Source of the DNA: Dictyostelium discoideum
Lineage: Eukaryota
Reading direction: 5' to 3'
DNA: 64,000 bases
Assembly (NCBI GenBank): GCA_000004695.1
Contig: CM000154.2
Location: forward strand, 832,001 to 896,000
Within the stretch, counting starts at the first letter, position 1, and the number at the start of each line of letters is the position of its first letter. The notes below the pieces were generated by a model, which saw nothing but the letters and a program-made list of their open reading frames with translations, ran no database searches and had not been told where the DNA came from. A program made the position numbers and the translations under genes. Shown one piece after another: positions 6,039 through 7,591 of this stretch.

Positions 6039-6596
6039 TTAGTAAAAGACTCCTTTATGAGAGATTGAACTCTTTTTACTTGCAGTTTTAAATGTATTCA
6101 ATAAGAAATGAGCAGCAAAAACCACCAAAACAACCATTAAAAATCTAAACAATGGACGTAATTTAACCATTATACTATCATTGGCATTATTTGCTCTTTG
6201 AATAAATGTATCATTACTACTACCATCATCACTATTTCTATTAATGTCAATCATTGGTTGTTGACGTTGATGTTGTTGGTGGTGGTGTTGATTTATTAAA
6301 ATTGGTTTTGTGTTTTGTTGTTTTATATTATTATTTTTAGAATTATTATTACTAATATCTTCACTAAATAATAACATATATTTAACTCTAATATCCTCTG
6401 AATTATCAGCTAAAATATAACAAGGTGGTAAAGAACGATCCTTTTCAGTAAAGACATGAGGTGATTGATGATGATTAGTTGCCATAACTTCAATACCACG
6501 TGCTGTTTCAATTGTATTAATTAAAGTACATGCTGATAAGAACCCAATTTTCTTTTTTGCCCACATTGAATTTGGCCACCATAATTCACTGATATG

Positions 6597-6641
<45 letters not shown>

Positions 6642-7591
6642 TTTTGATGATGAGGATGATGAACTTCCATTACCACCCCATTTAATAAAAGTAGTTGATA
6701 CTTTACTATCGGAAGAGAAATAAAAACCCTTACCAAATAAACATTCCTCTGAAACGAATTGATGAGAGAATCCTCTACCTTTGATAATATTAAACCAATT
6801 TTCATTTGCACTACCATGATAACCTAACATTGAACCTTTCTCTTTTTCAAGTTCTTTAAATTTTCTATGCCTTTTTTCATGATAACTACTAACTAAAACA
6901 CTATTATTATTATTACTATTATTATTATTACAATTTATATTATTGTTACTACTGCTACAAAAACTATTATCATTATTACTATTGTTATTATTATTATTAC
7001 TATTTACATTATATTTGACTTTAAATACAAAAGATGGTTTATGTGAAATTTTTAAATGGTCTGGTGAATCTTTTAGAAATCCATGTTTTCTTTCAAACTA
7101 TATATATAAAAAAATAATATATTATATATTTATTAGATTTGTTAAGTTTTTTATTAATATATAAAAAAAAAAAAATTAAATACCTTTTTATAATCTATAA
7201 ATTTAACTGATATACCATCAGATGATTTTAAAATGAAATATAATGCTTGAAGTGTTTGATGAGATAATTTTGAAAGTGTTTCTTTATTTGAGAGAGAATT
7301 TACATTTGGTAATTGAGAGAATGCTGATCTAAGTGATTCAAAATTCTTTTGAGGTTGTGTTATTGTTGAGGTTTTATTTTGTGTTGTTGTTGGAATATCA
7401 ATAAATGATGGTGGGAAAGGGTTACATAGTATATAACTTTTTCTATGAAAAATAGTTGTATAGAATAATGATAATAGAAAATCTGATTCCAATGGTTTTT
7501 GTTGAAATTCTAATGATAGTATGTCAATTATTTCTTCAATACTTTTATTTTTATTTTTATTATTAATATTAATATTTATATTTAAATCCAT
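6039..7591 (-). CDS. PARP catalytic-domain protein with C-terminal transmembrane anchor (PARP16-like architecture), 2 exons (7591-7184, 7097-6039)
   Basis: Exon 2 contains LGYHGSANENWFNIIKGRGF ... FGKGFYFSSDSKVSTTF ... CYILADNSEDIRVKYMLLF. These are the H-G-S, GKGIYFA-like and terminal beta-strand motifs of PARP/ART catalytic domains. A hydrophobic stretch LRPLFRFLMVVLVVFAAHFLL lies near the C-terminus. Exon 1 (136 codons) ends AAG followed by GTATTT; acceptor tatatatAG at 7098-7100. The 267 nt between the acceptor and the ORF-track Met are open and in frame. Confidence 0.6.

Follow-up and report, generated by a model that had tools for sequence, protein, structure and literature searches.

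A PARP16-like gene with the full domain architecture in Dictyostelium discoideum

A candidate ortholog of PARP16 outside animals

The subject of this study is a gene of Dictyostelium discoideum that lies within a stretch of 64,000 nucleotides (GenBank assembly GCA_000004695.1, contig CM000154.2, positions 832,001 to 896,000 of the forward strand). This whole stretch is referred to as the window, and all coordinates are counted from its first letter. A two-exon gene on the minus strand, at window positions 6039..7591, encodes a product of 488 amino acids (aa) when translated from the spliced exons. Taken as a whole, the evidence is best explained if this gene encodes the D. discoideum ortholog of PARP16 (ARTD15), and we consider this very probable. 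The order of its parts is that of human PARP16/ARTD15 (PDB: 4F0D, 6HXR, 6HXS, 6W65), namely an ARTD15_N domain, a PARP domain with an H-Y-Y triad, and a membrane helix followed by a short basic tail. The full architecture is present in Dictyostelia and in at least one other amoebozoan lineage. Three published surveys of PARPs state or imply that no such protein exists in Dictyostelium or in other non-animals, and the finding corrects them. At the same time, the protein is an uncharacterised member of a known family, whose relatives are already tagged with PF18084 and PF00644 in domain databases; the result is a correction of annotation and of evolutionary history, not a new kind of system.

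Domain architecture and catalytic triad

Both characteristic domains exceed the curated Pfam cut-offs, which are 26.3 bits for ARTD15_N (PF18084) and 26.7 bits for PARP (PF00644). ARTD15_N, the helical N-terminal domain of PARP16, is matched with 39.7 bits (E 5.7e-10), and its region includes a conserved PFP motif at aa 58-60, whose columns are conserved in 108, 92 and 110 of 121 aligned family members. A PARP catalytic domain had been proposed in the original prediction, which a model made from the letters alone; the PF00644 model bears this out with 29.9 bits (E 4.7e-7), in a match limited to aa 209-273. Only a third of the model is covered because a Ser/Asn loop of 30 residues directly follows the nicotinamide-stacking aromatic, and Pfam and CDD domain matches end at this loop (at about residue 275). 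The C-terminal half of the PARP domain is recovered by the hhalign alignment to animal PARP16 and by the fold match.

The H-G-S and GKGFYF motifs, described as clear in the original prediction, are found at aa 228-232 (GYHGS) and aa 258-263. The terminal strand PCYILADN, part of PPCYILADN at aa 360-368, had been described as lacking the catalytic Glu; this is correct but understated, since the position is occupied by Tyr363, which stands where poly-ADP-ribose polymerases carry the catalytic Glu. In the hhalign alignment of dictyostelids with animal PARP16, LPPCYILADNSEDIRVKYMLLFSE is paired with a 24-residue animal segment around the third triad position. This pairing and the column counts (Table 1) identify the third position as Tyr and thus the triad as the H-Y-Y variant, the one reported for PARP16/pART15 (Otto 2005, PMC1266365). 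The human triad is numbered according to the PDB chain indices of the sequence search and to Otto 2005 (PMC1266365). F273 is the nicotinamide-stacking aromatic, in a column with 69 Phe, 49 Tyr and 3 Trp among the 121 sequences; for this second aromatic, the window protein has the Phe of the family majority, whereas human PARP16 has Tyr.

Homologs and profile comparisons

The best sequence matches in the PDB are human PARP16 (4f0d and 6hxr; E ~3e-6), and the next PARP follows at E ~0.5. Poly-Asn words fill up the list of candidates in word-indexed homolog searches, which for this reason extended no further than dictyostelids or a few vertebrate PARP16s. These searches yielded orthologs from D. 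discoideum strains, D. citrinum, D. purpureum (DICPUDRAFT_100176), Polysphondylium violaceum (CYY_008863), Acytostelium subglobosum (SAMD00019534_019530) and Heterostelium album ('polyADP-ribose polymerase'), all with the same domains; a transcript of Trichosphaerium from the MMETSP collection is a further entry. Dictyostelid orthologs are 36-97 % identical to the window protein, and the architecture recurs in eight or more genomes or transcriptomes of dictyostelids. Dictyostelid and other amoebozoan orthologs share the architecture and the Pfam domains of the window protein; they are labelled only as 'hypothetical protein', 'PARP' or 'polyADP-ribose polymerase', and none of them is described as PARP16 in the searchable literature.

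When the dictyostelid alignment served as query in an exhaustive profile search, 792 representative proteins were retrieved at E<=1e-3. The animal matches that carry a name are annotated as PARP16 and come from Anneissia, Ciona, Babylonia and Python (E 1e-38 to 1e-22); of the named outgroups, the amoebozoan Trichosphaerium is the closest, with its transcript. Most full-length matches measure 290-380 aa and close with a hydrophobic helix followed by a short tail that is basic. Among 114 scanned family members, the PARP domain was detected in 113 and ARTD15_N in 105; every amoebozoan member tested exceeds the ARTD15_N cut-off. When dictyostelids are compared to animal PARP16 by hhalign, the probability is 99.9 % (E 4.6e-32), and the 267 aligned columns begin in the N-terminal domain and reach the last strand.

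Several of the related proteins have features of their own. Orthologs whose gene models reach the C-terminus end in a hydrophobic helix, with the exception of P0006 (eukprot, 568 aa), a dictyostelid-like protein that has an unrelated extension of ~200 residues instead; this is due either to a fusion of gene models or to a real loss of the anchor. Eight proteins of 640-740 aa (P0091, P0101, P0113, P0129, P0137, P0149, P0156 and P0159) carry the ARTD15_N and PARP unit in their C-terminal half; they are N-terminally extended PARP16 variants, and in P0091 ARTD15_N is located at 420-507 and PARP at 537-632. The Pfam model Exotox-A_cataly (cut-off 25.9) is also matched by several PARP16-family proteins of amoebozoan or environmental origin: its cut-off is exceeded in the Trichosphaerium-like P0020 (28.5 bits) and P0163 (28.4 bits), and P0019 lies just below (24.9 bits); these matches arise because the diphtheria-toxin-type ADP-ribosyltransferase (ART) fold is common to both groups. 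P0179 (492 aa, from a Logan assembly) matches the PARP16 profile weakly and combines the PARP catalytic domain with a ubiquitin-conjugating domain (UQ_con). Such PARP + UBCc fusions are a fungal-type Clade 6A architecture (Citarelli 2010).

Predicted structure

The fold was modelled with AlphaFold2 on P0007, the annotated ortholog from another D. discoideum strain. With the alignment of 114 sequences, the model reaches a mean predicted local distance difference test score (pLDDT) of 77.9 and a predicted template modelling score (pTM) of 0.72, with values above 90 in the core; a run with a shallower alignment of 10 sequences gave a pLDDT of 53.6 and was discarded. For the ARTD15_N region, a helical structure is modelled at pLDDT >90; all three inserts as well as the linker remain below 50, and a long C-terminal helix spans residues 453-485 in the numbering of P0007.

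All ten best Foldseek matches in the PDB are human PARP16 (6HXS, 6HXR, 6W65, 4F0D), with target-normalised template modelling (TM) scores of 0.82-0.87, root-mean-square deviations of 3.0-4.0 A and E-values down to 4e-14; human PARP16 and the model share only ~17-18 % identity in the structural alignment. PARP1, PARP2 and PARP3 reach TM scores of only 0.33-0.39. In the model, the helical N-terminal part and the catalytic domain thus have the arrangement seen in PARP16. Together with the ARTD15_N domain, the H-Y-Y triad and the profile matches named PARP16, the fold match upholds the PARP16-like architecture that had been proposed from the sequence.

Asn-rich inserts and the question of activity

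With 488 aa, the window protein is longer than the vertebrate PARP16 orthologs retrieved at full length, which comprise 331 aa; it contains three Asn/Ser-rich inserts. Long Asn-rich inserts had been noted originally, and they are located at aa 168-202, 277-306 and 383-400. We regard them as surface-loop expansions typical of Dictyostelium and not as functional modules. The first insert is absent from the orthologs of Polysphondylium and Acytostelium as well as from animals. The second differs in length between strains and across orthologs and is modelled as disordered. The third begins the linker that leads from the catalytic domain to the membrane helix and measures ~68 residues.

The second insert raises the question of whether the protein is a pseudoenzyme, that is, an inactive scaffold derived from PARP16 in which an Asn/Ser insert beside the NAD+ pocket has destroyed activity. 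This would fit a low-complexity segment of 30 residues (aa 277-306) directly after F273 and a Pfam PARP match that is weak and truncated. Yet all signature residues are kept (H230, G231, S232, G258, G260, Y262, the aromatic 273 and Y363), the insert lies in a disordered loop of variable length, and the folded parts are near-invariant between strains, with a ratio of nonsynonymous to synonymous substitution rates (dN/dS) of 0.2. We therefore consider a loss of activity by this route improbable.

The predicted tail anchor

According to the original prediction, a hydrophobic helix of 22 residues lies within the last ~30 residues of the protein. The length holds (aa 451-472), but the helix is placed in the last 38 residues. 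This stretch, PLFRFLMVVLVVFAAHFLLNTF, is the sole strongly hydrophobic segment of the window protein: the Kyte-Doolittle mean over a 19-mer is 2.27 (aa 451-469), compared to at most 1.02 elsewhere and a maximum of 0.39 at the N-terminus, and a simple sum on the Hessa scale gives -0.5 kcal/mol versus +6.9 for the next best segment. Its interpretation as a membrane segment, for which we used hydropathy scales and the long AlphaFold helix, agrees with the original one. A signal peptide is not expected at the N-terminus, which is hydrophilic by Kyte-Doolittle. Across the family, a C-terminal hydrophobic helix is found in 94 of 121 members, and a juxtamembrane N-[ST] motif occurs in only 29 of these 94, so that the motif is not a family feature.

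Strongly basic with a net charge of +4, the tail behind the helix (KTASKKSSISHKGVFY) is also short, and the hydrophobicity of the helix itself is only moderate. In the sorting of tail-anchored proteins, a short basic tail combined with moderate hydrophobicity can favour mitochondrial or peroxisomal targeting. The protein could thus be a PARP16 ortholog that resides in a membrane other than the endoplasmic reticulum (ER), e.g. the mitochondrial outer membrane or peroxisomes, and whose biology is unrelated to ER stress. However, the same values prevail throughout the family (median Kyte-Doolittle mean 2.32, tail length 15.5 residues, net charge +3.5), to which the reportedly ER-resident human PARP16 belongs; with 2.27, 16 residues and +4, the window protein is typical. 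An anchor in another membrane is for this reason unlikely.

Relationship to other PARP clades

PARP6, PARP8 and PARP16 are grouped together in Clade 6 (Citarelli 2010; Perina 2014). Like the window protein, PARP6 and PARP8 lack the catalytic Glu, and mono-ART chemistry would be expected for all of them on the basis of their sequences. They are characterized by an H-Y-I triad, a Cys-rich CX2CX9-19CX4C region and the lack of a membrane anchor (PMC4245714; Table S5 of a 2026 preprint, 10.64898/2026.07.25.740670). The window protein differs in each respect: its triad is H-Y-Y, no CxxC motif occurs anywhere among its six Cys, and it possesses ARTD15_N and the C-terminal helix. Membership in PARP6/8 was rejected because of Tyr363 in place of H-Y-I and the missing Cys-rich region; a PARP1/2/tankyrase-type protein was likewise rejected, owing to the Tyr at the Glu position and to TM scores of at most 0.39 for PARP1/2/3.

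It is also conceivable that the gene belongs to another clade, PARP6/8-like or macro-PARP-like, which gained a helix independently, so that the likeness to PARP16 is convergent. Neither in Clade 6 nor beside PARP16 did published surveys place a protein of D. discoideum (PMC2964712; 2026 preprint), as this scenario would predict. Against it stand an ARTD15_N domain above the cut-off, an hhalign probability of 99.9 % over both domains, a fold match specific to PARP16, a triad that is H-Y-Y rather than H-Y-I or H-Y-L, the missing CxxC, and a C-terminal helix common to most of the family. Such convergence is very improbable.

Some points nevertheless weigh against an assignment to PARP16 or limit how far it reaches. 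Orthology is based on domain, profile and fold matches and not on a phylogeny that includes PARP6/8, and it is a probable reading for this reason; the profile, PDB and Pfam matches do favour PARP16. The Pfam PARP match is weak and covers one third of the model only. The structure was modelled for P0007, which is 97 % identical to the window protein, instead of for the window protein itself, and the AlphaFold training data included PARP16 entries of the PDB. In the aligned animal orthologs, the membrane helix lies much closer to the catalytic domain than the ~68-residue linker of the window protein would place it. Furthermore, localisation, activity and substrates of the window protein are predicted by analogy, and PERK, the best-known partner of human PARP16, has no identified Dictyostelium ortholog (PMC6025073).

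Earlier surveys and evolutionary meaning

In earlier surveys it was stated that Dictyostelium has lost the clade of PARP16, or that PARP16s outside animals are devoid of the helical domain. Perina et al. (2014) described PARP16 homologs as sporadic outside animals and named Acanthamoeba among the amoebae. A preprint on fungal PARPs from July 2026 (10.64898/2026.07.25.740670) reports PARPs of the H-Y-I and H-Y-L types for D. discoideum AX4 but none with H-Y-Y, and proposes that H-Y-Y originated within animals and convergently in fungi.

In Table S6 of this preprint, the PARP domain of the AX4 protein XP_636988.1 is placed at 209-275, and its triad is given as incomplete, "HY-". XP_636988.1 is almost certainly the window protein, because the accession adjoins that of the neighbouring gene (XP_636989.1) and the domain boundaries match our Pfam match at 209-273. 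The incomplete scoring is explained by the Ser/Asn insert at 277-306, which ends domain matches before the strand with Y363. We had suspected that the AX4 annotation lacks the gene, as the exact sequence was absent from the protein collection and none of the matches in the homolog searches bore an AX4 label; the entry XP_636988.1 in Table S6 led us to reject this.

If the gene was inherited vertically, the presence of the architecture in Amoebozoa would place its origin before the split between Amoebozoa and Opisthokonta, a dating that we read from sequence comparison and not from a tree. One could go further and propose that a full PARP16 predates this split and in Dictyostelium modulates IRE1 signalling and/or ER-exit sites, as an ancestral function that depends on NAD+ and helps to couple starvation to the switch from growth to development. 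We offer this as a speculation with a small chance of being correct.

Possible function

The ER localisation, the enzyme activity and any stress role of the window protein are proposed here by analogy with characterized homologs. Human PARP16, a mono-ADP-ribosyltransferase, is held in the ER by a tail anchor and is required for the activation of PERK and IRE1alpha (Jwa & Chang 2012, as cited in PMC4245714), and Drosophila dPARP16 mono-ADP-ribosylates Sec16 upon amino-acid starvation, which drives the formation of Sec bodies (PMC5127640). By analogy with these enzymes, the window protein would be synthesised in the cytosol and, once translated, inserted through its tail anchor. The target membrane would most probably be the ER together with the nuclear envelope, and both folded domains would face the cytosol. 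NAD+ would be bound in the H-Y-Y pocket, and ADP-ribose would be transferred onto the protein itself and onto ER-proximal substrates, predictably as single units because the Glu that elongates polymers is replaced by Tyr.

Candidate substrates, again by analogy, are IreA (the IRE1 homolog), Sec16 and other components of ER-exit sites, ribosomal proteins, and karyopherin-beta. Within the Dictyostelium unfolded protein response (UPR), IreA is the sole known sensor, and orthologs of PERK and ATF6 have not been identified (PMC6025073); this 2018 review of ER stress in Dictyostelium does not mention PARPs. IreA, ER-exit-site or ribosomal targets are hence more plausible than PERK. The mechanism known from human cannot be transferred unchanged, and at least some of the partners must differ from those of human PARP16 in a host with no identified PERK or ATF6. 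The starvation response of dPARP16, a member of the same family, may be relevant to the starvation-triggered development of Dictyostelium, but as an analogy only. Modification of the candidate substrates would link NAD+ status and stress or starvation to the control of the secretory pathway and of translation. The connections of PARP16 to IRE1 and to Sec16 are poorly understood; a tractable haploid amoeba with one known UPR sensor and a PARP16 of full architecture makes both testable outside animals.

Gene model and sequence features

The coordinates of the original prediction, 6039-7591, coincide exactly with the coding span from stop to ATG. Three observations support the splice model: an intron of 89 nt lies at the same position in the other D. 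discoideum strain, where splicing gives the annotated protein P0007; homology to other species and to animal and human PARP16 is unbroken across the junction (...KFIDYKK/FERKHGFL...); and in GCA_054883475.1 the identical 1553-bp gene DNA was called as a 488-residue product. The features are compiled in Table 1.

The window has a G+C content of 23 %, and the protein is 15 % Asn, with long homopolymer codon runs in the gene. The Asn content and the codon runs could point to a pseudogene or to a chance open reading frame (ORF) in AT-rich DNA, but an unbroken frame continues over a canonical intron, orthologs of the same architecture exist in at least eight dictyostelids, and the dN/dS of 0.20 versus the other D. 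discoideum strain (~92 % DNA identity locally) indicates purifying selection. The amino-acid differences between the strains fall nearly all in repeat tracts, while the folded parts are almost invariant. That the gene is a pseudogene or a chance ORF is extremely improbable.

Table 1. Features of the PARP16-like gene and of its product in the window
Feature	Window position	Strand	Basis or remark
Whole coding span, PARP16-like gene	6039..7591	-	ATG 7591..7589, stop 6041..6039; 488 aa
Exon 1, codons 1-136	7184..7591	-	frame meets GT donor right after ...DYKK
Intron, 86 nt, GTATTT...ATATAG, strongly AT-rich	7098..7183	-	GT..AG ends
Exon 2, codons 137-488 + stop (352 codons + stop)	6039..7097	-	spliced frame
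ARTD15_N (PF18084, PARP16 N-terminal helical domain), aa 30-121	7229..7504	-	Pfam E 5.7e-10, 39.7 bits
Asn/Ser-rich insert 1, aa 168-202, between N-terminal and catalytic domains	6900..7004	-	composition; pLDDT <50
ADP-ribosyltransferase (PARP) catalytic domain, ~aa 205-382, split by Asn-rich loop	6360..6893	-	Pfam, hhalign and fold match
His230 codon, triad position 1, in GYHGS	6816..6818	-	His column 120/121; aligned to His of human 'AFHGS'
Tyr262 codon, triad position 2, in GKGFYF	6720..6722	-	Tyr column 121/121; human counterpart in GTYL
Ser/Asn-rich insert 2, aa 277-306, within catalytic domain directly past F273	6588..6677	-	composition, alignment
Tyr363 codon, triad position 3, in PPCYIL	6417..6419	-	Tyr column 108/121; aligned to Tyr of human 'PPKYFVV'
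Asn-rich start (aa 383-400) of low-complexity linker, linker aa 383-450	6306..6359	-	composition, alignment, model
Predicted transmembrane tail-anchor helix, aa 451-472	6090..6155	-	Kyte-Doolittle, Hessa sum, AlphaFold
Basic C-terminal tail KTASKKSSISHKGVFY, 16 residues, net +4, predicted lumen-facing	6042..6089	-	sequence

Neighbouring genes and locus

Directly downstream of the PARP16-like gene and on the same strand (-), a large M16-family metallopeptidase gene occupies window positions 1953..5778. Its ORF at 1953..5054 comprises 1033 aa, and additional sequence that codes for the N-terminus extends to an ATG near 5778; the syntenic calls measure 1181 aa in another strain (Peptidase_M16, weak, and Peptidase_M16_C) and 1194 aa in L002. 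On the other side, a single-exon gene for ornithine aminotransferase at 9784..11034 (+) is an exact match to AX4 XP_636989.1 / Q54JP5 (oatA), by which the organism is identified. It is divergent from the PARP16-like gene, and a spacer of 2.2 kb of AT-rich DNA separates the two. No tRNA was found in window positions 1..20000 and no Rfam family in 5000..10000.

Compared to the independent assembly L002 (GCA_054883475.1, CM142511.1), window positions 1..20741 show no mismatches in the blocks 1..13391 and 13492..20741; the differences consist of 46 gap positions only, i.e. they concern the length of homopolymers or microsatellites. The window is accordingly assigned to the lineage of D. discoideum laboratory strains. 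The wild D. discoideum strain L001 is locally ~91-97 % identical to the window. Two intergenic simple-sequence tracts at 9166..9266 and 13058..13165 give many staggered matches to a repeat of L001 and are microsatellite-like.

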